Part shown: piece by piece, positions 6,061 to 63,202 of the stretch
Layout of the letters: each line of letters opens with the position of its first letter
Numbering within the stretch: the stretch's first letter is position 1
Source: an uncultured Candidatus Poseidoniales archaeon
GTDB lineage: Archaea > Thermoplasmatota > Poseidoniia > Poseidoniales > Thalassarchaeaceae
Assembly: GCA_963934165.1 (NCBI GenBank)
Contig: CAWVXH010000003.1
Span: 43,102-107,101 of the forward strand
Length of the DNA: 64,000 nucleotides
Direction: 5' to 3'
The notes under the pieces: model-generated
Told to the model about the DNA's origin: nothing
The model's input: only the letters and a program-made list of their open reading frames with translations
Databases searched by the model: none
Translations under genes and position numbers: made by a program

Positions 6061-6534
6061 ATGAGAAATTATTGGCTTATGAAAAGTGAACCGGATGTTT
6101 ACTCCTGGTCTATGTTAGTAAAAGATAAATCTACTCATTGGGATGGTGTTAGAAATTATCAAGCTAGGAATATAATGCGGGATTCAATGAAAATGGGAGA
6201 TTTAGTTTTTTTTTACCATTCGAATTGCAAACCGCCCCACATTGCTGGAATTGCAAGAATCTGCAAAGAATCTTATCCCGACTTTACTTCTTGGGATCCG
6301 AAATCAAAATATTATGATCCGAAATCTTCTGAAGAAAATCCAAGATGGTTTATGATTGATATCGAACCAATTTCAGAAATTAATACAATTAATTTACACG
6401 ATGCAAAGGAAAATGCAGATTTATTGGGATTGGCTTTAATTCGAAAAGGGCAACGACTTTCAGTACAACCTGTAAGTTCTGAGCATTTTGAAATTCTGTG
6501 TCAAATGGGTGGAATAAAAAGTATACCAGTTTAG
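6061..6534 (+). CDS. EVE (PUA-like, DUF55) domain protein
   Basis: YWLMKSEPDVYSW...HWDGVRNYQARNIMRD.MK.GDLVFFYHSN is the classic EVE-domain signature. Confidence 0.75.
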   Translation: MRNYWLMKSEPDVYSWSMLVKDKSTHWDGVRNYQARNIMRDSMKMGDLVFFYHSNCKPPHIAGIARICKESYPDFTSWDPKSKYYDPKSSEENPRWFMIDIEPISEINTINLHDAKENADLLGLALIRKGQRLSVQPVSSEHFEILCQMGGIKSIPV

Positions 6535-6535
6535 T

Positions 6536-6842
6536 GGGCACGTTCTCGGTGGACACTCGTCACAAACGATGAAAATTCACCAATTTCCTCCACTCCGCAT
6601 TCCCAAGGCATCCAGCATCCCCGGTCGGGTTGCTCGCTTCCGCGCCTGACCTGGTTCCCGGGCTTAAGACAGTCCGACATTCCCTTCGGAATGACATTGT
6701 GCCAACCTGCATCTCTTGGGGGCGAAGCATCGACGTCAATTGGTGGGTCACCATAAGCTCGTCTGAGCCGCCCTCGAACTTCGGGACACCTTTTTCAACG
6801 ATTTGTGTAAAATAGAGCACGTCAACACTCCCCCTAGCCCAA
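6536..6842 (-). ncRNA. Signal recognition particle RNA (archaeal 7S/SRP RNA); ends approximate (+/- 25 nt)
   Basis: GC-rich island in an AT-rich genome. The minus strand reads ACCAGGUCAGG-CGC-GGAAG-CGAGCAAC (plus 6645-6655 = cctgacctggt). This matches the universally conserved helix-8 motif (ACCAGGUCAGG..GGAA tetraloop..AGCA). The 5' UGGGC and 3' GCCCA can pair, the length is about 300 nt, and the ORFs here look spurious. Confidence 0.7.
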
Positions 6843-6899
6843 CACCCCTAGGGAAGTGTCCCCTATCAACGAATCCCTTTCGGAGAGATGTGATTTAGT

Positions 6900-29697: not shown

Positions 29698-29775
29698 TGG
29701 TGGGCCTGCCTGGATTTGAACCAGAGTCTGTTCGTCCCAAACGAACAAGCATAGACCAGACTAACCCACAGGCCC
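29698..29775 (-). tRNA. tRNA-Pro (anticodon UGG), CCA encoded
   Basis: Minus strand GGGCCUG..GUUCG-UUUGGGA-CGAAC..UCUGG-UUCAAAU-CCAGG-CAGGCCC-A-CCA. Acceptor, anticodon and T arms fold cleanly; the D stem is weak. Confidence 0.9.
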
Positions 29776-41844: not shown

Positions 41845-42750
41845 TTATTCATTGAGTCTATCGATGAGGACTGATTTCTTTCCAGAAACCGCTTTTCCTT
41901 GGGATTTAAGTAATTCTTTGAGTTCAGTAACCTTCATCGAGGAATAGTCGATTGATTCATCTTCAAGTTCTTCTTCTAGTTCTGATTCTACGGAATCTTC
42001 AACGATTGCATCACTAACGTCATCGGCATCTTCGTCCGCTTCATCTACATTTTCTTCAGTGTCCGAAACATCTCTAATCTTAGCCTCTTCTGCATCTGCA
42101 GATTCTTGAGCATGAATTTCATCCAGTGTTGGTCCATCCTCGACAAGAACGCCTGATTGGAGAAGTTGGGTCCTACGAATAATAACTGTACGGACAGGTT
42201 GAATTTTAGATACTGATTCTTTAATTGTATTTTCAATAGAGCCATCTAACACTGCTTTTTGCAGTGCTAGCCAGGTCATTGAAGCACCAGTAGTTAAAAT
42301 TGCATCTCTTGCTATTGTCCTCATCTCTTGCTTCTGGCTTGATTTAACACGACCCCTTGTGATGATTAGAGGCTTGAATCGAACATAATATCCATCTTCA
42401 GTAACAACATCTACTGTATCATCGATTTTCCCACGATCTCGACGAACTTGTCGGCGAATCTGATCCTTCAAATGCTCATGACCAACAAATTCAGTTAATG
42501 CATCACCAGATACGACGTCGATAACTCGAAACTGAATTTTTACATGCATCTTAGAAAAGTCGCCGTCTAGTTCATTTTGCATAATTTCATAACTACGGCC
42601 AATCAAAAATTCGTTATCCTCAGCGAGTGTTTCGCCAATAACTCTGAACGACCACGGATTACGAGGCGCTCTAATAGTGAACCAGCGTTTTGCCTTCCAC
42701 TTATCTTTCTGTTTACGTGCCGCTGCTCTTGCTGATGCTCCTTTTGCCAT
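41845..42750 (-). CDS. rps3ae: 30S ribosomal protein S3Ae with ~100-aa C-terminal extension (acidic linker + SAP/HeH-like motif)
   Basis: MAKG..ARAAARKQKDKWKAKRWFTIRAP...GR core. The tail ends MKVTELKELLKSQGKAVSGKKSVLIDRLNE. Confidence 0.9.
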   Translation of the reverse strand: MAKGASARAAARKQKDKWKAKRWFTIRAPRNPWSFRVIGETLAEDNEFLIGRSYEIMQNELDGDFSKMHVKIQFRVIDVVSGDALTEFVGHEHLKDQIRRQVRRDRGKIDDTVDVVTEDGYYVRFKPLIITRGRVKSSQKQEMRTIARDAILTTGASMTWLALQKAVLDGSIENTIKESVSKIQPVRTVIIRRTQLLQSGVLVEDGPTLDEIHAQESADAEEAKIRDVSDTEENVDEADEDADDVSDAIVEDSVESELEEELEDESIDYSSMKVTELKELLKSQGKAVSGKKSVLIDRLNE

Positions 42751-42895
42751 TTTCAACGACTCCGTATATTTCGGGGGCTACCCCGTATGCGAGCCGAGCG
42801 AACTACATTCAGTATATGAACGAGACGATGAAAATGAGGATGAAAATTCCCTCGACAGCGGCGCATTCAAGGGCAGGGTGTGTTCGCGTTTAACT

Positions 42896-44740: not shown

Positions 44741-45787
44741 CTATTTTTTCCCTCGAGCGGTGCCAAATTTCCTTCCACTTTTTTTATTGATACCAGCATC
44801 TTTTGATTCGGTTAATTGTTCATCTGATTCCCTTATTCCACCAATAATCAATGAACCGCTATTCAATAATTGTTCAGTAAGAGAATCGGCCATGCCCTCA
44901 TCTTGATCAGGAGTCCTCAATGCATCTTTAACAGATAGATTATGATCCCGGATAACTCTTTCACGCTCCTCATTCGCCGCTTTAATCTCATCTCGAATTT
45001 CATTACATTGGTCAATTATTTCTTTCATGTTTCCATGGACTTCGTTGGCAGCTTCCCGAGAAGTGATATAGGCTGCATGTAAGCGATCGCCCTCTGCTCT
45101 CAAAAAATCCCTCTCTTGTAAAATTGGCTTAACATCTTCCCAAATTTCATCTGCTTGCTTGTGGCAATCAATCATAGCCTGATGCTCTAAATCTGCCTCC
45201 GACTTCAAAATAAGTATGGAACCATCCATGTCATTGAGGTCAATTTTGATGATTTCAAATTCAGCCACCGCTGGTAATAATTCATTTCTTCGAGAAATCA
45301 AAGATTTCAGTTTTTTTAACAATTTATTTTCTGACTCTAGAGTTAATCGACCATCGGTCATTATAGTATTTTCAATACGATCGATTTCGCTAACAGTTTC
45401 AGTCAATTGAAGTACGATGGATTTAGAATTATTTTCATCAGAACGACGACCTTTCTTTTGGTTGATTAATTCTCGAATCTGGTTTTGGATCTCGTCTCTC
45501 TTTGCTTTGTGAACTTTCGCTTGGTCTCTAATGGATTTTTGCTCATCTAACTGAGCCTTAATTGATTCACGCAATTCTTTTCCTTGTTCTTGAATTGCAT
45601 TCCGAGAATCTGCAGCTCGTCGAGCGTCTTCATTGTGACCATTACGCTGATCACGCATTCGGCGTATGCGTGTTTCCATAGCATGTAGACGGGTTCTCAA
45701 ATCGTCATCGGGCTTCTCAGCATCTTCTGGCACAACTCGCCGAGAAGGGAACCCTTCTTCAATGAAACTACTTGAATCAGAGCCCAA
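44741..45787 (-). CDS. COG1340-like archaeal coiled-coil protein, paralog A (basic C-terminal tail)
   Basis: Heptad-rich sequence. Motifs IENTIMTDGRLTLESENKLLKKLKSL and SEADLEH are shared with paralogs B-D. TTG start overlaps the upstream gene by 11 nt. Confidence 0.6.
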   Translation of the reverse strand: MGSDSSSFIEEGFPSRRVVPEDAEKPDDDLRTRLHAMETRIRRMRDQRNGHNEDARRAADSRNAIQEQGKELRESIKAQLDEQKSIRDQAKVHKAKRDEIQNQIRELINQKKGRRSDENNSKSIVLQLTETVSEIDRIENTIMTDGRLTLESENKLLKKLKSLISRRNELLPAVAEFEIIKIDLNDMDGSILILKSEADLEHQAMIDCHKQADEIWEDVKPILQERDFLRAEGDRLHAAYITSREAANEVHGNMKEIIDQCNEIRDEIKAANEERERVIRDHNLSVKDALRTPDQDEGMADSLTEQLLNSGSLIIGGIRESDEQLTESKDAGINKKSGRKFGTARGKK

Positions 45788-47345
45788 TTAATGAAGTGAA
45801 AAATGGTAATATAGGTGAAATAACAACAATGGCTGCACCTGCTAAAAATAAGCCACCAACTGTCAATCTTAGCCTAGTAAACATGTCGGGACGATTTTGA
45901 ACTGTTAATACACGTCCAGAGATTAAATTCCCATAAATGTCTTCGAGACGTACGGAAACTGTCGCCTCTCCTGTGTGGGCTGGCAAAAGACTCTGCCAAA
46001 TGATATCTGTGGATTTTAGCGCATCTGGTAGTTGTTGAATGATCGAAAGGTTGCTTTTTCCGATTTTTGAAGGTTCGTAAGGATCAATCCGAAGGTTGTA
46101 AACACATTCATTAGGACGGAAATCTGGAGTCTGAACTCGTAGAATTAAATCGACAGAAGAGTCTCCTTGATTTAGAATGAAAGCGAACAAATTTGCTCGG
46201 CCAACAACTAAATTTTCCATGTCAACATCAAACCAAATATTTCTCGAATGCCCCTTTTCTAAATGCATTCTCATTCGGTCATGCAATCTAAAAAAAGGCG
46301 CACAACGGTTTCTAGCACGTATCAATAATCTATCCCACGTCTCTTCACCTAATTCTGGGTGATTGAATAATTCATCAATAATTTGAATCGGCATCAATAA
46401 TTCCAATGAACTCCTGAATTCATTTTCGTTCATCAATCCAGCTCTACGAATATGCAATAAATGTAACAAACCTTCTTGTAAATTTGTCATATTTCTACCG
46501 TCATCAATATTTTTCTGAACAAGCCTGAGATAATCAGAAATTTTCACTGCAAGGAGTGGATCCACATGCGCTTTAATTACATCACTAAATGGCCGACGTA
46601 AAAGAGCAGGATGAACTGGAGGGGAGAATGCATCGAGCATTCCCCAAGGTTCTGATGCGTTGAATCGGGAGCGATTAGACACCATATGAACACCATGACC
46701 CGACAACAACGCCCCTGTTGAAAGTGCCAAGAGAACAGGTGTCCCCCTGGTAAAATCAGAAAATTGTAAACTGAGCAGTAGGAATATCCCAGACAAAAAC
46801 ATCAGAAGAGTTGTAGCTCCGACTTGGCGAATTGATCCTTCAATAGTTTCTTTCATCTCTGCATATCCATGAGCACTTTTGAAAGTAAATCCAGATGTAG
46901 TCAATCGCTCTGATTGAAGATAAAATATTTTTCTTGTTAGAATTAATAGTCTAAATAATACGATTAATAATCCAATATCTGCAACCAAAATAAAAAGAGC
47001 TAAAATGTAAAATCCACGATTTACATTAACCTCTCCAATCAAAGGTTGGGCATTTTCAACCCACCAATTTGGTGCTGAATTAGTGAATGATTGCGCAAGC
47101 CCAAATAATAATATCACCAGCATTGGCAAAACGGAAACAAATCTTGTCCCTCGGCTAATAAAGAGTCGATCAATACGAACTAAAATTGACTCATATGATT
47201 GATATTTAGTTATCATGTCAGATTTGTTTGGGTGTCTATGAATTGGATTATCTCTATTCACGGTAGAATCTAAAACTGGTGCCGAAGGAAGGGGGGTTTC
47301 TTTTGAGTTATTATTTTCGTTCAAAATGTCATTGAATTCGTTCAT
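45777..47345 (-). CDS. Hypothetical polytopic membrane protein (4 N-terminal TM, ~300-aa soluble domain, C-terminal TM)
   Basis: ATG preceded by gaggtga RBS; hydrophobic segments read from the translation; no family recognised. Confidence 0.6.
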   Translation of the reverse strand: MNEFNDILNENNNSKETPLPSAPVLDSTVNRDNPIHRHPNKSDMITKYQSYESILVRIDRLFISRGTRFVSVLPMLVILLFGLAQSFTNSAPNWWVENAQPLIGEVNVNRGFYILALFILVADIGLLIVLFRLLILTRKIFYLQSERLTTSGFTFKSAHGYAEMKETIEGSIRQVGATTLLMFLSGIFLLLSLQFSDFTRGTPVLLALSTGALLSGHGVHMVSNRSRFNASEPWGMLDAFSPPVHPALLRRPFSDVIKAHVDPLLAVKISDYLRLVQKNIDDGRNMTNLQEGLLHLLHIRRAGLMNENEFRSSLELLMPIQIIDELFNHPELGEETWDRLLIRARNRCAPFFRLHDRMRMHLEKGHSRNIWFDVDMENLVVGRANLFAFILNQGDSSVDLILRVQTPDFRPNECVYNLRIDPYEPSKIGKSNLSIIQQLPDALKSTDIIWQSLLPAHTGEATVSVRLEDIYGNLISGRVLTVQNRPDMFTRLRLTVGGLFLAGAAIVVISPILPFFTSLIGL

Positions 47346-47354
47346 TATTTCACC

Positions 47355-48002
47355 TCAAATTGTTCGAGCAAGGATACGGAAACCTATTTTCTCTGAGAAT
47401 TGGAGGGTTTTTTCTCCAATAAAATATTCATTATTTGAATTAATTATTTTTTGACCTATTTCTATACCTAAATCATTAATGGTTCGATTTTCAACACCAC
47501 CAAGCAAAATTACCTCAATTATCGCAGGAGTATCAGGCGGTAATGTTTGGATGGGAAGAAGCATACCGCTATCCACCAGTATGGGTTGTCGATTGATTAA
47601 AGGAATTTTTTTACCGTCTAAACGAAGTTCGGGAAAGCCCAACAATTCTTCTAATCGTGATTCCAATTCATCATTTACTACGTGTTCCATCCTACAGGAC
47701 ATTTCGTCAATGTCTCCTTGAAAACCAATAATATCCCGCAATAATATTTGTAGAAGAGATTCTCGACGTTTGATTTTTGCGGCATGATGGAATCCTTCAG
47801 AAGTTAACCTCGAACCACGGTATGGGATGTGCGTGACAAATCCCCTCCGGGCAAGACGTTGTATCATTTCAGTTGTCGACGCAGGGCTGACGTTCATCAT
47901 CTCCGCTAATTGAGTAGTCTTGACTATTTCATCAGGTTGTTCGAAGTGTGCTTCAAAAATCCGTTTGAGATACATCTCTTCGTATTCACTTAATTCACTC
48001 AT
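47355..48002 (-). CDS. DtxR/MntR-family metal-dependent transcriptional regulator with FeoA/SH3-like C-terminal domain
   Basis: EMYLKRIF....V.TTQLAEMMNVSPASTTEMIQRLARRG.V, and CRMEH matching the DtxR C102/E105/H106 ancillary-site positions. ATG at 48002 with ggtga RBS. Confidence 0.8.
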   Translation of the reverse strand: MSELSEYEEMYLKRIFEAHFEQPDEIVKTTQLAEMMNVSPASTTEMIQRLARRGFVTHIPYRGSRLTSEGFHHAAKIKRRESLLQILLRDIIGFQGDIDEMSCRMEHVVNDELESRLEELLGFPELRLDGKKIPLINRQPILVDSGMLLPIQTLPPDTPAIIEVILLGGVENRTINDLGIEIGQKIINSNNEYFIGEKTLQFSEKIGFRILARTI

Positions 48003-48007
48003 CCAAA

Positions 48008-49882
48008 TCACCCAATCTCTGAAATAAATTCTGAACGGCAGGCAGGACATCTAGATCTAATCGGGCGCTTAGCAATTGGAACACGTAAAACTTGGTCACA
48101 TGTTGGACAAGAAAGGATATCATCCATTGATTTAGAAGTGAGTTTCTGTTCTGGTTCAAAATTATCCGATAATTGATTCTCTAAGTTTACTGAATCATTC
48201 AAAACCTTCGTTTGGAAATTATTTACGGAAAATTGTTGAGTACACGCTGGACATTTCACATCACCTTCATGAGTTGATGGAATGTTCAACCTCTGATCAC
48301 AACCAGGGCATTGAATTTCTTTTTTAGATTCAGTTTGGTTTCGTCTTGAAATTCTAGTTTCCGATAAGCGTTTTGATTTGGCATCAGTTGTAGAAGGGGT
48401 TCGTTGAGAAAACGCTCGATAAACAACAGCACTTGCCATTACCAGAGATAACCCCGATAATGATCCATAAACAGCAGCAGCCATATTGAATGGTAGAACT
48501 ATACCTGTATCGACTTTTTCTTCAGCGATAATAGATATTTGCTCCGAAGTTACTAAACCTCCCATCAGCCAAATAATTTCTATATCGACGGTTTGAGAAT
48601 AGCTCCACGAAGGAATTAGCAGTGAACTAGAAAATGACCCACCGGGTCCAACCGGAGAAACATTTTGTTCAGCGAGGATTAAGTTATCTGCGACATTTAC
48701 TATTCGAATAATTCCAATTTGTGAAGATTCTGAGCCAGAATTATTTAACCAATAATTAATTGAAATAGGTTCTGATAATTTGGCTTGTGATGGAATAATT
48801 TCTCCGATTTCAACGGTTGTTAATATAGCAGGGGGCTGTAATTCAAGAATTAAAATTGCATCGCCATCAGATGCAAACCATCCATTTGCCGAACCAATTA
48901 TCTGTAACCGGTCCCCACCAGGGTGACCTAGAATTACTGAAATCACCCTTATTCCAGGAGACATTTCAAGGTTTAATGATTGGATTTCAGTGTATTCATT
49001 ATTGTTTTTTAATTGAATTGAAACATCGATCTCTCTCTCTTTTCCATCACTCATCAACAACTCAAAATTAATAATCAATCCATCATCATTAGTCCAATCC
49101 ATGTCCACTAATTGGATAGAAATTTGTTGTGCTTCTAAAATCACTAGATCCATGGTTCCATTCAAGTTGACTGAAACTCCACCTGTTGGTGAAATTATTC
49201 TCCAATCTATAGACTGTGGTCCATCTTGTCCAATCAAAAATGTAGTAATCACCTCTCTGCTTGAACCTGGGAAAATATATACCGAATCACCAATTGAGAT
49301 AATACTTCCATCCGGTTTGTAAAGACCCAATTCAACTTCACCACCATATTCACCATTATTATGAACAAGAATAGATGCAACTAACTCATCTCCGACATGT
49401 GCGGGTTGACCGATGATTGCAACATCAGGAGTTCCTGCTGCAGTGAAATTGATGGGGTTGGGGCCAATTCTCAACTCAAGTATTTCAAACACTTCTGAAT
49501 TAATAAGTTCAAGTTTACACAAGAGGTTTCCTTCGTACACCGGTCCAAATTGAATCTCGATTATAGAATAATCATCTTCATTCAATATTCCACTATTACC
49601 ACCATACCATTGGCCATTAAATCCAAAACTGAATTGCCAAGAATCATTCCCAACTGAAATCTGAGAAAGTTCGATACTCAATCGGACAATATCACCAGAA
49701 GAAATTGTAGCGTTTTCATTCTCTAACCCAGTTGAACCGTCTACAATCCTTACATCCCAAAGAGATGATTCTTCTATAGAATAATTACCGACCTCTGCAT
49801 GGGTCTCACTAACAAAAATTAATATTATCAACAATACTATTGATGAACGAGAGATAGAAGTCAAACTCTCACCGATACTCAT
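48008..49882 (-). CDS. Type-I membrane protein: signal peptide, CARDB-like beta-sandwich repeats, TM, cytoplasmic tail with two MJ0042-type zinc ribbons
   Basis: Signal LLIILIFVSETHA; VASILVHNNGEYGGEVELGLY (CARDB-like); TM AAAVYGSLSGLSLVMASAVVY; CPGCDQRLNIP...CPACTQQF and CPTCDQVLRVP...CPACRSEF. Confidence 0.6.
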   Translation of the reverse strand: MSIGESLTSISRSSIVLLIILIFVSETHAEVGNYSIEESSLWDVRIVDGSTGLENENATISSGDIVRLSIELSQISVGNDSWQFSFGFNGQWYGGNSGILNEDDYSIIEIQFGPVYEGNLLCKLELINSEVFEILELRIGPNPINFTAAGTPDVAIIGQPAHVGDELVASILVHNNGEYGGEVELGLYKPDGSIISIGDSVYIFPGSSREVITTFLIGQDGPQSIDWRIISPTGGVSVNLNGTMDLVILEAQQISIQLVDMDWTNDDGLIINFELLMSDGKEREIDVSIQLKNNNEYTEIQSLNLEMSPGIRVISVILGHPGGDRLQIIGSANGWFASDGDAILILELQPPAILTTVEIGEIIPSQAKLSEPISINYWLNNSGSESSQIGIIRIVNVADNLILAEQNVSPVGPGGSFSSSLLIPSWSYSQTVDIEIIWLMGGLVTSEQISIIAEEKVDTGIVLPFNMAAAVYGSLSGLSLVMASAVVYRAFSQRTPSTTDAKSKRLSETRISRRNQTESKKEIQCPGCDQRLNIPSTHEGDVKCPACTQQFSVNNFQTKVLNDSVNLENQLSDNFEPEQKLTSKSMDDILSCPTCDQVLRVPIAKRPIRSRCPACRSEFISEIG

Positions 49883-49930
49883 CAATACTCGTCGAATCAA
49901 TTGTCCGTATCAATGAAACCCATGTTCTAA

Positions 49931-49943
49931 GTCACATAGTGAC
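49931..49943. promoter_or_regulatory. Perfect inverted repeat GTCAC-ATA-GTGAC abutting a TATA-like ctttatg box about 27 nt upstream of the (leaderless?) ATG at 49977; candidate operator
   Basis: Read directly in the 94-bp divergent intergenic region. The operator function is inferred only from the nearby DtxR-family gene. Confidence 0.3.
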
Positions 49944-49976
49944 CTTTATGCACACCATCCAAGTGCCCCGAATCCA

Positions 49977-50858
49977 ATGGATACCGATGCACTGCTGTCT
50001 GTCGCACCCACAGATATGGCGAAAGCCTTACTTGCCCGTCGGCAGATGTTGAAAGAACAATTACCGACAGTAATTCGAACACTAGAAGCAGAGGAACAAT
50101 CGTTGGCTCCAAAGGTCGATCGAGTAGTGAATTCACACCGTGTATCGAATACTAAAGTAAGTGAATTAAAATCAATTAGGAATGAGTCTCAAATCAAGGC
50201 TGGAAAGTCCCTTAAACAAGTAAAACACTCACATGAAAAATTGCTTTCATCAGGTGGAATGATAAATTTAGATCCTACGTGGGTTAAGGAAAAATTACTT
50301 GAAGAACTTGAAGAAATAGAAGAAAAAATCCAAACATCTGCACTTGACCACAAAGCTGAGAAAAAACTCATCGACCGCAGAAAAAAATTGGTTGAAAAGA
50401 ATGAAAATTGGTTAAAAGAACGCAGAGATTCGAACCCTGAGATGGCAATATACATCGAAGAAAGGAAAAAAATGAGTGAATATTACCGGGAAGCAGACAA
50501 AACTCACCAGAACATGTTAGCCATGGTAAAAAAGGCTCAACCGCTTCATAAAAAACAGTTATTATTGAAAAATGAACTGATTGAGATACGCAGGCAACTC
50601 GACCGGGCAAAGGAATTGATGGCTCAATCTGAACGTACTATTTCATACTGGGAAAGAAGATTGAATGATGGATTTGGCGAGTTAGATACAGGTTTCTCTG
50701 ATTTATTAATTGCACAACAAAAGGTAGCCTCTGGTGGAAATTCTAGTTTCGCCAGAAAAAAACAGAATAATAACAAGAAACCCCCCGGAAAAAGCAACTC
50801 CACGAAAAAATCTCCTAAAAAGATTGAAGATAGTTCAAATGGAGGTGAAGAAGAGTGA
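49977..50858 (+). CDS. COG1340-like coiled-coil protein, paralog B (Lys-rich tail)
   Basis: LLEELEEIEEKIQTSALDHKAEKKLIDRRKKL and YREADKTHQ motifs; tail KKQNNNKKPPGKSNSTKKSPKK. Confidence 0.6.
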   Translation: MDTDALLSVAPTDMAKALLARRQMLKEQLPTVIRTLEAEEQSLAPKVDRVVNSHRVSNTKVSELKSIRNESQIKAGKSLKQVKHSHEKLLSSGGMINLDPTWVKEKLLEELEEIEEKIQTSALDHKAEKKLIDRRKKLVEKNENWLKERRDSNPEMAIYIEERKKMSEYYREADKTHQNMLAMVKKAQPLHKKQLLLKNELIEIRRQLDRAKELMAQSERTISYWERRLNDGFGELDTGFSDLLIAQQKVASGGNSSFARKKQNNNKKPPGKSNSTKKSPKKIEDSSNGGEEE

Positions 50859-51817
50859 GTAGCGAAGCAAAAGAGGGGATGTTTTCGGACCTTGAAGAAT
50901 TATCACATACTGAAGTGAAACAGCTGGCCAAGGATGCAGATATTCAAGTTAGATCCCTTGAACAAGAGCATCAAGATATTCGAGATGAACGGAAAAACCA
51001 AATTACTCTTGTAAAATCAATGCGCCTAGCAGTTGGAGATATGGAAGAGGGAAATCTGGAGCGGAAGAACTTGCTTCAACGATTTCATTCTGTAAGGAAA
51101 TCTTCAGAAATCGCGCGAAATCAAAGAGATGCTGTAAATAGAGCAATTCCCCCTCCAGTTAATATTCTAGAAGAATGGTTGGGGGAAACTCATCAAAGGT
51201 TAGTTACGATTAACAATGATTTGACAACAGTTCCAACCTTAAATAGGGAAATTGAGATGTTCAAACGGTTCTTCGAAATACAGGCATCAGTTGTAAGAAA
51301 ATATGATTCAGAAAAATATCATTCCCAATATGTGAAACATATTGAATCGATAAGGGAAATAACTTCAGAATTGGATAAAACTAGAAAACCTAAACCTTCA
51401 AAATCAGAGCAAACAGATGTGGAAGAGGAAAACAATATATCTCATTCAGAACTCAGAAAAATAAGTAAACGAATTTCTAATATTGATAAAAAATTAGATT
51501 CACTATACTCAGAGGTAAAAGAACAAAAGAAGGAACTTAAACGGCTGCGGTCGTATGTAAATATTACAAGAGGAAGAGGGAAACCGATTAAAATCGCAGA
51601 AGTAAAAAGTCGTGCGCAGCGTGGTGGCTCACTAAATACTGCTGAACTTGGAGCCCTCCTCAATTCAGGAGGATTAACTGAATTAACAAGCGGGGATACT
51701 TCAAAGACATTAAAATCTAAACTAACTAAATCCAATTCAAAACAACCAAGAAAAAAAATTGGAGTCGCCCGCCGAGGAGCTAGGAAAGGAACTCTAGCTA
51801 CACGCAGAGATGAGTAA
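50855..51817 (+). CDS. COG1340-like coiled-coil protein, paralog C (Arg/Lys-rich tail)
   Basis: GTG start in a GTGA overlap with paralog B, preceded by ggaggtga. Coiled-coil sequence; GGSLNTAELGALLNSG C-terminal motif. Confidence 0.6.
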   Translation: MSSEAKEGMFSDLEELSHTEVKQLAKDADIQVRSLEQEHQDIRDERKNQITLVKSMRLAVGDMEEGNLERKNLLQRFHSVRKSSEIARNQRDAVNRAIPPPVNILEEWLGETHQRLVTINNDLTTVPTLNREIEMFKRFFEIQASVVRKYDSEKYHSQYVKHIESIREITSELDKTRKPKPSKSEQTDVEEENNISHSELRKISKRISNIDKKLDSLYSEVKEQKKELKRLRSYVNITRGRGKPIKIAEVKSRAQRGGSLNTAELGALLNSGGLTELTSGDTSKTLKSKLTKSNSKQPRKKIGVARRGARKGTLATRRDE

Positions 51818-51899
51818 ACGCTAGGACGAAAACGCCGCACTGCTACTATGGTATTATATGCAACATGAATGCGCCGAGAAGACAGGAGAGGAGTGTTTG

Positions 51900-52769
51900 A
51901 TGGATTACGCAGAAGTTCGAAGCACCCTTATTCCGAAGAATAAATCATTAGATGAAAAATTAAATTTATTCAGAAGCGATAGAGACGAATGGAATTCCAG
52001 AGTGAAGAAATATTTGACTGAAAGAAACGAAATCAATCGCCAAGTAAAGGAATTAATTTCAGAAGTTCAAAAGCAGAAACTGGTTAGAGACGAAGCAAAT
52101 TCTAGCGTTAAAGAATTAAAAATCATAAGGGCAGAACATTCAGATAAACTTAAAGCGTTACGTGTAGAATTAAAAGAGAAAAAACCTGATGAAAAAGAAA
52201 AGTTCGAATCTAAGAAGGAACGAAAAAGATCTGAAAGACAGATTAGTAATGACATTGAGAGCTTAGATAACAAATATCAAAGAGGGGCTTTTCAGGATAA
52301 CGAAAAGAAATTCGAACGTAGTATGAAAAAATTATATCAAGAATTAAAAGATGTCAAAGCTAGTAAAATGTTGAACAAATTCGCGGGATTAGAAGCAGAC
52401 ATTCGTGCTGCCTCTTCATTACAAGAAAATTCCCATAAGACCGTCGAAAGGGCTGTCGGTACGGCTCAAGAAGCCCATGATCTAATGATCGAGTTATCCG
52501 AAGAGGTAGATCGTTTGAGAGAAATAGCAAATTCTGCTCAGGAAGGAGTAATTCGCTCAAAAAGAGAGGCAGATGCATTGCATAGGAAATATATTGTATC
52601 ACTTCGAAGTATTCATTCAATTCAAGATTTGTTAAAGGCTATGAACAAGCATGAACGTGAGAGCGAAGAAGATGGGAACGAAAAGTTAGAGATCAATGAT
52701 TTGATGACTAGATTGATGGCCGGTGACACACTTTCCACCGAAGAATTGATGGCTTTACAACGAAATTAA
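51900..52769 (+). CDS. COG1340-like coiled-coil protein, paralog D
   Basis: RSDRDEWNSRVKKYLTERNEINRQVKELISE, KREADALHRKY, C-terminal LMAGDTLSTEELMALQ. ATG at 51900 preceded by ggagaggag. Confidence 0.65.
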   Translation: MDYAEVRSTLIPKNKSLDEKLNLFRSDRDEWNSRVKKYLTERNEINRQVKELISEVQKQKLVRDEANSSVKELKIIRAEHSDKLKALRVELKEKKPDEKEKFESKKERKRSERQISNDIESLDNKYQRGAFQDNEKKFERSMKKLYQELKDVKASKMLNKFAGLEADIRAASSLQENSHKTVERAVGTAQEAHDLMIELSEEVDRLREIANSAQEGVIRSKREADALHRKYIVSLRSIHSIQDLLKAMNKHERESEEDGNEKLEINDLMTRLMAGDTLSTEELMALQRN

Positions 52770-53708
52770 TCACTTTTTGTCGTATAATTTTCCATTCCGA
52801 CCATGTAGGATTTGTTCGTCTCCTCCTTCAAATTGTAAATTCCAGCCAGGAATTAGTAAGATAGAGCTAGACATTGAAATTGTATCTAGATTAGCTCTCC
52901 ACCATTCGAGTAACATACTTTTTACTTTGGATGATGATTCAGAACCTTTCTGAATCATTCTTGTGTCTAGTAAAGGTTTGATGTTTTTTAATAATTTTTC
53001 ATTAGATAACCAAGGATTACTAGGTTTTATTTTCCTTAAATTAATATCTGATTCTAGAACCTCGTCATTAGAAAACTCACCGGTTGATTCAGACCAAGGG
53101 TCTTCGATTATTTGCCAATTCTTGGATTTTATTTCCCCACTAGGGCTAACTAAACTTCCAGAGATGCTCCATAATTTACATTCTAAAACAATTGGGATGG
53201 TATTCACGGTTGCCCAACCCCTGTTATCAAGCCAAGACTCTAAATCTACAATTGGACGCAGAAAAATAGTCTCAACGTCTTGATTATAGATTGATTTTGG
53301 ATAATTCTGAGTAGTTAGATCATCTGTTTTTGAATTAAGAATTGACTCTAAATCACCATTCAATACCGCTTTACCAATCCACGAAGAAAACAGAGGAGAA
53401 TCCCAAAATTGAATGTTATCTAATTTGGACAAAAGCAGTTCCGATTGAGATGTCAAATTACGTTCACTAAGGAACCAATGATTTCCTTGGGGAGCATCCA
53501 CTAACCATCTCTCGATTTCATTTACATCAATGGGTAAAATTCCCTTTGGGATATACCAAACAAATATTTTATAATTTCCAGAGAAATGAACTTCGGGTAA
53601 TGCAAAGATTGAGCCAATGCACTTAAAATCAAAAGGAGCAAAATTCATTTTCTCCGAATTAAGGATGTCACCCCGTGAAGCGAACAGTGCTCGCACAGTC
53701 TCTTCCAT
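52770..53708 (-). CDS. Hypothetical protein (312 aa) occupying the position downstream of rpl30e
   Basis: Long ORF, Trp-rich, no KH or GxxG motifs, so it is not NusA. The N-terminal FDF...PEVH...YKIFVWYIPKG is vaguely nuclease-fold-like, but this is unsupported. Confidence 0.5.
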   Translation of the reverse strand: MEETVRALFASRGDILNSEKMNFAPFDFKCIGSIFALPEVHFSGNYKIFVWYIPKGILPIDVNEIERWLVDAPQGNHWFLSERNLTSQSELLLSKLDNIQFWDSPLFSSWIGKAVLNGDLESILNSKTDDLTTQNYPKSIYNQDVETIFLRPIVDLESWLDNRGWATVNTIPIVLECKLWSISGSLVSPSGEIKSKNWQIIEDPWSESTGEFSNDEVLESDINLRKIKPSNPWLSNEKLLKNIKPLLDTRMIQKGSESSSKVKSMLLEWWRANLDTISMSSSILLIPGWNLQFEGGDEQILHGRNGKLYDKK

Positions 53709-63080: not shown

Positions 63081-63128
63081 ATCATCGCCCCGGGCCAGCA
63101 AAAACCGTGAGCCTGCGGCTTAGTCAGG

Positions 63129-63202
63129 CGGGCCCGAGGGGATTCGAACCCCTGGCCACCGGGTTAAAAGCCCGGCGCTCTACCTGACTAAGCTACAGGC
63201 CC
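63129..63202 (-). tRNA. tRNA-Lys (anticodon UUU), CCA not encoded
   Basis: Minus strand GGGCCUG-UA-GCUU-AGUCAGGUA-GAGC-G-CCGGG-CUUUUAA-CCCGG-UGGCC-AGGGG-UUCGAAU-CCCCU-CGGGCCC-G. All four arms pair. Confidence 0.9.

Follow-up and report, generated by a model that had tools for sequence, protein, structure and literature searches.

Do seven adjacent genes of a marine archaeon, packed into two divergent operons, act together as one system, and if so, as a system of what kind? The genes lie in a 64,000-nucleotide stretch of DNA (the window) from a Thalassarchaeaceae archaeon of Marine Group IIb (MGIIb), and we refer to them as surf, dtxR, mem522 and ccA on the minus strand and ccB, ccC and ccD on the plus strand. 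We find that they make up a real and undescribed gene cluster that extends across the order Poseidoniales, the argument for a "system" being one of comparative genomics throughout. The explanation we favor, which we regard as possible while still short of an even chance, is that the cluster encodes a coiled-coil assembly anchored in the membrane and controlled locally in response to metal. Marine Group II (MGII) archaea are uncultured and among the most abundant planktonic archaea, and an order-wide cluster made up almost entirely of uncharacterized families is a target for work on how their envelope is built and regulated.

All seven open reading frames reported in a preliminary description of the window are present, at the coordinates and on the strands given there. 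The minus-strand operon begins with surf (48008..49882), which encodes a type-I membrane protein, and continues through the gene for a 215-residue DtxR/IdeR-family metalloregulator (47355..48002) and mem522 (45777..47345), encoding a 522-residue polytopic membrane protein, to ccA (44741..45787), which encodes a DUF7121-family coiled-coil protein. The plus-strand operon comprises ccB (49977..50858; a DUF7121-family coiled-coil protein with a basic, lysine-rich tail), ccC (50855..51817; a coiled-coil protein with a basic tail) and ccD (51858..52769; a DUF7121 coiled-coil protein). The start codons of surf and ccB are separated by a 94-bp divergent control region (49883..49976). Read from the DNA, surf ends in ...GGG TGA and is followed after 5 nucleotides (TTTGG) by the dtxR ATG at 48002; the dtxR TGA is followed after 9 nucleotides (GGTGAAATA) by the mem522 ATG, with GGTGAAATA lying within TTTGAGGTGAAATAATG and presenting a GAGGTGA Shine-Dalgarno-like motif ahead of mem522; and ccC overlaps ccB by the four nucleotides GTGA, with GGAGGTGA just upstream. 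The gaps, ribosome-binding site, overlap and spacer are thus as first described, and the tight coupling is conserved. Of 72 related loci, 69 retain the four-nucleotide overlap, ccB and ccC probably forming a translationally coupled pair, and the surf-dtxR-mem junctions have median gaps of -4 to +3 nucleotides across related loci.

The claim that these genes belong together is strengthened by their neighborhoods, as the core order is kept in MGIIb, in MGIIa-type relatives and in a deeper lineage while the flanks change. Within MGIIb, the stretch from the ferredoxin gene to rpoA'' is collinear in all 80 species genomes; this is conservation, and alone it cannot separate function from inertia. 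The MGIIa-type sample consists of four loci (L084-L087), one from a named Poseidoniales genome, whose mem proteins are 26-30% identical to the window's mem522. All four have a DUF7121 gene (ccB) divergent from surf (CARDB/zinc-ribbon), dtxR, mem and a second DUF7121 gene (ccA), in that order. Where the window cluster lies between pdxS with the ferredoxin gene and L30e-rpoA''-rpoA', the MGIIa-type loci have a sugar-nucleotidyltransferase gene beyond ccA and PurP beyond ccD. Persistence of the core adjacency at this level of divergence, despite changed flanks, points to co-localization beyond general synteny.

The same loci show which parts of the cluster vary. In the MGIIa-type loci, three to four other genes separate ccD from ccB/ccC, and the interval between ccC and ccD holds a GNAT acetyltransferase (all four loci) and a Roadblock/LC7-like protein of about 100-130 residues, whose 21.7-22.9 bits fall slightly short of the cut-off of 23. 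L085 and L087 also have a KaiC-like ATPase there (98 bits), as does L092. In the deeper lineage (L092/L089) the order is PurP, ccD, KaiC-like, Roadblock, ccC and ccB, divergent from surf, mem and ccA; dtxR is missing, and L092 has no GNAT gene. The inserted genes lie at L092:3093-4081, L085:1258-2231, L087:1135-2201 and L084:1781-2645, and no GNAT, KaiC-like, Roadblock or NTP (nucleoside triphosphate)-transferase gene, nor a nucleotidyltransferase domain, was found in the window. From this distribution, the core of the cluster appears to be surf-mem-ccA with ccB-ccC divergent from it and ccD nearby, with DtxR and an enzyme domain described below as variable additions. The association appears specific to Poseidoniales and near relatives, because the mem homologs of three Asgard genomes and of three further lineages lack these neighbors.

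One alternative is that there is no single system here: unrelated genes would have been kept side by side by a conservative genome order, and DtxR would be a global regulator that happens to reside among them. The MGIIb collinearity fits this idea in that it takes in housekeeping genes as well, as do the closeness to the cluster that pdxS and the ferredoxin gene retain in L085 and L086, the occurrence of mem522 homologs alone in other phyla, and the unrelated genes that part ccD from ccB/ccC in MGIIa-type loci. Such inertia does not readily account for a core adjacency and divergent layout that persist at 26-30% identity while flanks and inserts differ, for the conservation of overlapping or near-abutting frames, or for the presence of three to four members of the rare DUF7121 family within 8 kb when the rest of the window holds no copy. 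We consider this alternative unlikely, while still giving it appreciable weight.

If the genes do belong together, the coiled-coil proteins are the most numerous of their products. The preliminary description called all four paralogs. This probably stands for ccA, ccB and ccD, which can be joined through DUF7121 orthologs and profiles, and is not demonstrable for ccC. In all four, E, K, R, Q, L, A and D make up 53-62% of residues, runs free of proline and glycine reach 83 residues, and a strong 3.5-residue periodicity is accompanied by weak SMC-arm-type matches. Topology analysis found no transmembrane segments in any of them, and ccA, ccB and ccC end in Lys/Arg-rich basic tails. Pairwise BLASTP among the four gave nothing significant (best ccA-ccD, E=0.12). 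Profiles made from ortholog alignments of 69-77 species and compared by hhalign linked ccA to ccD (97%, 234 columns), ccB (81%, 123 columns) and ccC (71%, 132 columns) and ccB to ccD (77%, 137 columns), matched ccC to ccD over the last 30 columns only (43%), and gave no match between ccB and ccC. Against the Pfam model DUF7121 (PF23435, cut-off 29 bits), ccD scores 44.9 bits over model positions 44-303 of 307 and ccA 17.7 bits, under the cut-off; the window's ccB has no Pfam match. The MGIIa orthologs of ccA, ccB and ccD, with orthology assigned by hidden Markov model (HMM), carry precomputed PF23435 matches (at E <= 1e-5 for ccA and ccB), and the ccB HMM finds its MGIIa orthologs at E 1e-43 to 1e-53. 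By these sequence criteria ccD is a member of DUF7121/COG1340, and ccA and ccB probably belong to the same family, their placement coming via orthologs and profiles.

COG1340 has been listed among "highly conserved archaeal proteins of unknown function" (PMC1322226). The roughly 300-residue length and coiled-coil character of the window proteins fit the family; a distinctive point is that three copies are clustered here with two membrane proteins. Our literature search found no paper that mentions DUF7121 or PF23435, and COG1340 only as "unknown function", and no sequence relative of ccD was found in the Protein Data Bank (PDB). No further copy of any of these coiled-coil families was found in the 64-kb window. 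In L092, the ccB protein itself is cut to 140 residues (L092:5085-5507), of which the N-terminal 59 and C-terminal 77 align to the ccB profile, the central coiled coil having been deleted.

The origin of ccC is visible in the MGIIa-type relatives. There its ortholog is a fusion protein of about 710 residues (about 670-730 across the four loci: L084:2650-4842, L085:2748-4895, L086:2830-4962 and L087:2742-4757), and the ccC HMM matches residues ~380-730 of these proteins at E 1e-35 to 1e-42. The N-terminal half of the fusion is a Cid1/TUTase (terminal uridylyltransferase)-like nucleotidyltransferase of the Pol-beta-type palm fold (in L084, PF22600 at 104.9 bits and PAP_assoc, PF03828, at 43.7 bits) with its catalytic motifs GS...DLD (GS...DxD) intact; the C-terminal half is a coiled coil of about 350 residues with a basic tail. 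The orthologs thus share both Pfam domains and the catalytic motifs of the non-canonical Cid1-family poly(A)/poly(U) polymerases. In the window, ccC is without any of the enzyme half, and tblastn found no trace of that half elsewhere in the window. The ccC of L092/L089 (319 residues) likewise has no enzyme domain. On these comparisons ccC is best described as the C-terminal, coiled-coil remnant of a nucleotidyltransferase fusion, MGIIb having lost the enzyme half. Neither ccC nor its L084 and L092 orthologs match DUF7121 in Pfam; ccC and ccD do resemble each other over some 30 residues at their C-termini (...sG.sLst.El.aL, 93%), and ccC may be a very divergent DUF7121 derivative. The idea that all four coiled-coil proteins share this motif was dropped, as only ccC and ccD have it. 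We know of no description of a Cid1-type enzyme fused to a coiled coil of about 350 residues with a DUF7121-like C-terminal motif.

This fusion raises the possibility of a membrane-tethered RNA- or nucleotide-modifying complex, in which the coiled coils would position a Cid1/TUTase-type enzyme and a GNAT acetyltransferase, the tails would bind RNA, and MGIIb would retain a non-catalytic framework. In MGIIa-type genomes the fusion gene encodes a nucleotidyltransferase with intact GS...DxD motifs and PAP_assoc and is coupled to the DUF7121 gene ccB by a 4-nt overlap, GNAT, KaiC-like ATPase and Roadblock/LC7 genes follow it, and Lys/Arg-rich tails are found on ccA, ccB and ccC. But the enzyme domain and the GNAT, KaiC-like and Roadblock genes are missing from the window, the nucleotidyltransferase domain and GNAT from L092 as well, and no RNA-binding domain was detected in the cluster proteins by a Pfam scan. 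Because the remaining cluster is under purifying selection without them, catalysis cannot be its core function in MGIIb. We regard such a complex as very improbable.

The protein surf would supply the link to the cell exterior. It has a signal-like hydrophobic segment at its N-terminus, a very acidic 434-residue ectodomain (60 Asp+Glu vs 15 Lys+Arg) with seven N-x-S/T sequons, a single transmembrane helix (469-487) and a basic, 136-residue cytoplasmic tail. The tail carries two zinc ribbons, as had been proposed: the CPxC...CPxC motifs are conserved in the ortholog alignment, a Pfam scan gives zinc-ribbon matches, and topology analysis places them in the cytoplasm. The description of surf as CARDB-like needs qualification, since the window protein has no CARDB or DUF11 match in Pfam at E <= 0.1, and it is the orthologs that pass both models (CARDB 37.4 bits, cut-off 22.7; DUF11 27.2 bits, cut-off 24.6); a conserved motif, H.GD...ASILV.N.G, is present. 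PDB searches found no sequence relative. The acidic ectodomain and its N-glycosylation sequons, together with the ortholog matches, liken surf to CARDB/DUF11 surface proteins, from which it differs in being a type-I anchor with a conserved double zinc ribbon in the cytoplasm. Such a tail suggests that surf couples the two sides of the membrane and is more than a protein displayed on the surface.

The second membrane protein, mem522, has no sequence match in Pfam, NCBIfam or the PDB. It is 98% identical to a protein on a "Candidatus Poseidoniales archaeon" contig, and its nearest named relatives are from Thalassarchaeaceae/Marine Group II. A profile search of 1.84 billion representatives returned 183 clusters at 50% identity, whose full-length members have four N-terminal transmembrane helices and usually one more at the C-terminus. 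Named members come from Poseidoniaceae and from many Asgard archaea (Loki-/Promethearchaeota, Thor-, Hod-, Hel-, Heimdall-, Hermod- and Wukongarchaeota). With an Asgard-weighted profile, at least 120 Asgard proteins are found at E < 1e-131. In three Asgard loci the homologs are stand-alone genes (L081:8001-9482, L082:8001-9476 and L083:8001-9479), divergent from an ABC-2 exporter pair in two of the three, with genes for a pyridine-nucleotide-disulfide oxidoreductase and a PAS histidine kinase downstream.

An AlphaFold model built on a 92-sequence alignment spanning MGIIb, MGIIa and Asgard proteins reached a mean predicted local distance difference test (pLDDT) score of 87.8 and a predicted template modeling (pTM) score of 0.82; a first model from 14 close sequences (pLDDT 56.7) was discarded as unusable. 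The model has an amphipathic helix (39-64), transmembrane helices at about 69-86, 108-135, 165-194 and 202-222, a cytoplasmic helical domain (~225-365), a seven-strand immunoglobulin (Ig)-like beta-sandwich (370-484; about 365-485) and a last transmembrane helix (488-509). In a Foldseek search of the PDB, the sandwich alone matched macroglobulin, transglutaminase-C and Ig-like domains, with a query TM-score of ~0.17, and no solved structural analogue was found for the rest of the protein. Judged by the Lys/Arg distribution, the large soluble domain is cytoplasmic, as are loop 2 and the N-terminus. Few intramembrane residues are conserved; H245, D262 and E291 are invariant across MGII and Asgard sequences, and all three lie in the cytoplasmic domain. 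mem522 thus founds a membrane protein family that is absent from Pfam and whose fold, as predicted here, is new. The last third of its sandwich (profile positions 449-479) also matches 31 separate stretches of a 5362-residue metagenomic protein, P0142, so the Ig-like module appears to occur elsewhere as a long tandem array.

A four-helix membrane protein alongside a zinc-ribbon tail invites comparison with the haloarchaeal division-ring anchors CdpA and CdpC, the second of which anchors FtsZ1. CdpA (HVO_0739) has four N-terminal transmembrane helices and a cytoplasmic region, with "CdpA-like" proteins of other lengths widespread in archaea (PMC12126565), and the function of CdpC (HVO_0399) depends on two zinc fingers (doi 10.64898/2026.07.16.738847). 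By analogy only, mem522 and the surf tail could tether cytoplasmic polymers in a similar manner, the cluster being a cell-division or shape anchor with DUF7121 proteins as its filament-forming or bridging element; the housekeeping-like universality of the cluster within the order would suit such a role. Unlike CdpA, though, mem522 folds much of its cytoplasmic part into a large domain and ends in a fifth transmembrane helix, and the published CdpA description has a counterpart to neither. Unlike CdpC, the zinc ribbons here form the tail of a surface protein and have no Pfam match to DUF7093 (CdpC), and neither the window nor the four MGIIa-type loci hold ftsZ, sepF or cdpB in the neighborhood. 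We find this analogy an improbable guide to function. The haloarchaeal Dip/Arco and CdpC systems, considered as possible equivalents of the cluster, are unrelated to it in composition.

What controls expression of the cluster? The preliminary description suggested a shared promoter region and metal-dependent control, which fits MGIIb, where a conserved palindrome is suitably placed for DtxR, but not the cluster as a whole, where DtxR is dispensable and absent from L092/L089. The regulator is an ordinary DtxR-family member, with an N-terminal winged-helix DNA-binding domain (PF01325, 60.5 bits, cut-off 26), a metal-binding and dimerization domain (PF02742, 56.7 bits, cut-off 27) and a C-terminal extension of ~78 residues. 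Its best PDB relatives are DtxR, IdeR and MntR (8pvt, 5zr4, 7b24 and DtxR at E 1e-17 to 1e-12). Aligned to the IdeR-type 7b24, its residues M10, C103, E106 and H107 correspond to the primary site of DtxR (Met10, Cys102, Glu105, His106); across 78 orthologs, each is conserved in 80% or more. In having both domains and a primary metal site it resembles DtxR, IdeR, MntR and TroR. It departs from the family in its ancillary site, where His79, Glu83 and His98 are replaced by Glu, Gln and Asp; in its neighbors, which are not transporter or siderophore genes; and in being embedded in a structural operon and missing from one lineage that keeps the cluster. MGIIa-type regulators show the reverse, with Glu in place of Met10 and a canonical His/Glu/His ancillary site. 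The identity of the metal sensed, like the direction of regulation proposed below, is something we infer.

The spacer between surf and ccB measures 85-96 bp in 73 MGIIb loci, and its alignment reveals three conserved blocks. The first is an inverted repeat, AGTCAC-ATA-GTGACC (49930..49944; family consensus GGTCAC-N3-GTGACC), which extends in several species to an 8-3-8 form, AAGGTCAC-TAT-GTGACCTT (15-19 bp overall); the palindrome sequence, AAGGTCACTATGTGACCTT, is the candidate binding target of the regulator. With at most one mismatch it occurs in 50 of the 73 MGIIb spacers, always 31-34 nucleotides from the ccB start, and has only two other approximate matches in ~1.4 Mb of loci. It occurs once in the window, where a search for a second operator copy found none even allowing three mismatches, and a perfect 6-3-6 palindrome arises in 2% of shuffled spacers. 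The second block, a TATA-like ATAAAG/TTAAAG conserved beside the palindrome in the 73 spacers, is represented in the window by a TATA-box-like TTTAT on the plus strand (49945..49949), about 30 nucleotides upstream of the ccB ATG, which would serve as the ccB promoter and implies a leaderless or near-leaderless ccB mRNA. The third is a box, GGGTTTCATTSATACGG in minus-strand reading (49905..49921), about 29 nucleotides upstream of the surf ATG and conserved in the 73 spacers, which is the probable TFB-recognition element (BRE)/TATA region of the minus operon. Archaeal operons usually have leaderless first genes and internal genes led by Shine-Dalgarno motifs; surf and ccB probably have leaderless promoters, and the Shine-Dalgarno motifs ahead of the internal genes mem and ccC fit the pattern. 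The spacer of L092, which lacks DtxR, keeps the TATA-like block and has no palindrome.

The DtxR-family regulator TroR of Haloferax has a motif defined by chromatin immunoprecipitation, TTTAGGC-NNN-CCTAAA, in 7-3-7 form (doi 10.1101/2023.08.16.553580), and the palindrome here has the same half-site-N3-half-site layout with a 6-3-6 core. Its position and conservation fit a DtxR operator, with which the co-encoded regulator would be paired.

A DtxR-type regulator also brings to mind metal supply. DtxR-family genes usually lie beside their metal-transport targets, and iron limitation matters in the surface ocean; the cluster might accordingly serve iron or manganese acquisition or homeostasis, with DtxR repressing it in replete cells, surf and mem522 capturing or transporting the metal, and the coiled coils as accessories. 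The conserved iron-type ligands M10, C103, E106 and H107, the candidate operator in the shared promoter and the three invariant residues of mem522 (H245, D262 and E291) are all compatible with this. Yet no component resembles a known transporter, siderophore or metal-binding family; mem522, with four plus one transmembrane helices and little conservation within the membrane, makes a poor candidate for a transporter, and its invariant residues sit in the cytoplasmic domain. The L092 lineage, moreover, has the structural genes without DtxR, and mem522 homologs elsewhere show no consistent linkage to metal genes. We judge a metal-supply role to be distinctly unlikely.

The membrane-anchored coiled-coil assembly draws these observations together best. 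The zinc-ribbon tail of surf lies in the cytoplasm, as does the soluble domain of mem522, and transmembrane segments are absent from the coiled-coil proteins; these compatible topologies support an assembly. We propose that surf and mem522 form a membrane platform, and that the double zinc ribbon of surf and the helical/Ig-like domain of mem522 dock the coiled-coil proteins at its cytoplasmic side, where these would act as a scaffold. ccB and ccC, made in fixed proportion through translational coupling, would pair, the basic tails of ccA, ccB and ccC would add contacts to acidic lipids or nucleic acid, and the extracellular Ig-like stack of surf would tie the assembly to the cell surface. In MGIIb, a metal-loaded DtxR-type dimer would bind the palindrome between the two promoters. 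Since the palindrome abuts the ccB TATA box, binding would block access of TATA-binding protein and transcription factor B (TBP/TFB) to the adjoining ccB promoter and so repress ccB-ccC, while the surf promoter, 10-20 bp away, would be modulated, and with it surf-dtxR-mem-ccA, including the regulator's own gene.

Several observations weigh against this proposal. Shared periodicity inflates profile matches between coiled coils. In three Asgard genomes and in three further lineages, homologs of mem522 occur with none of the cluster partners. Poseidoniales tend to preserve their gene order in general, so that part of the conservation may be passive, and pdxS and the ferredoxin gene stay close in L085 and L086. 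With respect to control, 23 of the 73 MGIIb loci (a divergent sub-clade) and three of the four MGIIa-type loci have DtxR and no clear palindrome, the MGIIa-type exception being L085 (TAAATAC-ATC-GTATTTA), and the absence of DtxR from L092/L089 means that regulation is not integral to the cluster. Finally, the nucleotidyltransferase, GNAT, KaiC-like ATPase and Roadblock proteins of MGIIa-type loci suggest some activity, enzymatic or regulatory, for which a scaffold by itself gives no explanation.

These last proteins would find a place in a more elaborate version of the assembly: a hitherto unrecognized envelope-spanning machine of MGII archaea in which surf acts as a receptor coupled, through its zinc-ribbon tail and mem522, to a DUF7121 lattice, making up a metal-switched membrane-cytoskeleton or signaling apparatus. 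In its ancestral form the lattice could have borne a KaiC-like ATPase, a Roadblock/LC7 protein and a nucleotidyltransferase of Cid1 type. Such a machine is speculative and rather unlikely; were it real, the pan-archaeal DUF7121/COG1340 family would gain its first lead to a function.

By composition and layout, the cluster appears to be new as a gene system and to match no known one; we found no description of it as a whole in the literature. Profile searches assign none of its components to a characterized pathway, while the wide distribution of mem522 shows that this component is not specific to the cluster. An anti-phage defense system was considered and set aside, as PADLOC gave chance-level matches only (E >= 0.001) and the chromosomal position is fixed in every species. 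Three of its features offer testable handles: the candidate regulator-operator pair; mem522, with its confident model of a family that has neither a Pfam entry nor a solved fold and is shared with Asgard archaea; and the genomic context that the cluster gives to DUF7121/COG1340, including, via ccC, the MGIIa fusion to a eukaryote-type terminal nucleotidyltransferase.

Three gene starts deserve comment. For dtxR, a mechanical list of reading frames runs to an ATG at 48050, inside surf, and orthologs back the 215-residue form from 48002. For ccA, an 11-nucleotide overlap with mem522 had been described, and it is present if translation begins at TTG 45787; that start is doubtful, and the overlap with it, as the 18 N-terminal residues it adds are gapped in most orthologs in the alignment. 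The true start is probably the GTG at codon 19 (45733), 54 nucleotides downstream, which gives a gap of 34-45 nucleotides as in other species. For ccD, the N-terminal 12-14 residues are gapped in aligned orthologs, so that Met15 at 51900, 42 nucleotides downstream of 51858, is probably the true start. The 40-nucleotide spacer between ccC and ccD contains TATTATAT, and ccD possibly has its own promoter.

Both ends of the locus are convergent, with pdxS adjoining the ccA stop and a 312-residue reading frame, orf312 (52770-53708, minus strand), adjoining that of ccD. orf312 is conserved at 32-40% identity in MGIIb only, and its stop abuts or overlaps the ccD stop (gap -23 to +3 nucleotides in 68 loci); it has no Pfam or NCBIfam match. 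We considered it as an eighth member of the cluster and rejected it, as it is convergent, has no MGIIa-type or L092 counterpart and shows no profile link. Rfam and tRNA scans found no RNA gene inside the locus. Elsewhere in the window, and unrelated to the locus, are an archaeal signal recognition particle RNA (6532-6844, minus strand; 117.8 bits), tRNA-Pro(TGG) (29698-29775, minus strand) and tRNA-Lys(TTT) (63127-63202, minus strand). Also in the window, at 41845-42756 on the minus strand, is the gene for ribosomal protein S3Ae (eS1), which has a C-terminal acidic linker and a SAP-like motif (...MKVTELKELLKSQGKAVSGKKSVLIDRLNE); its ortholog in L086 is flagged as PF01015 plus PF02037 (SAP).

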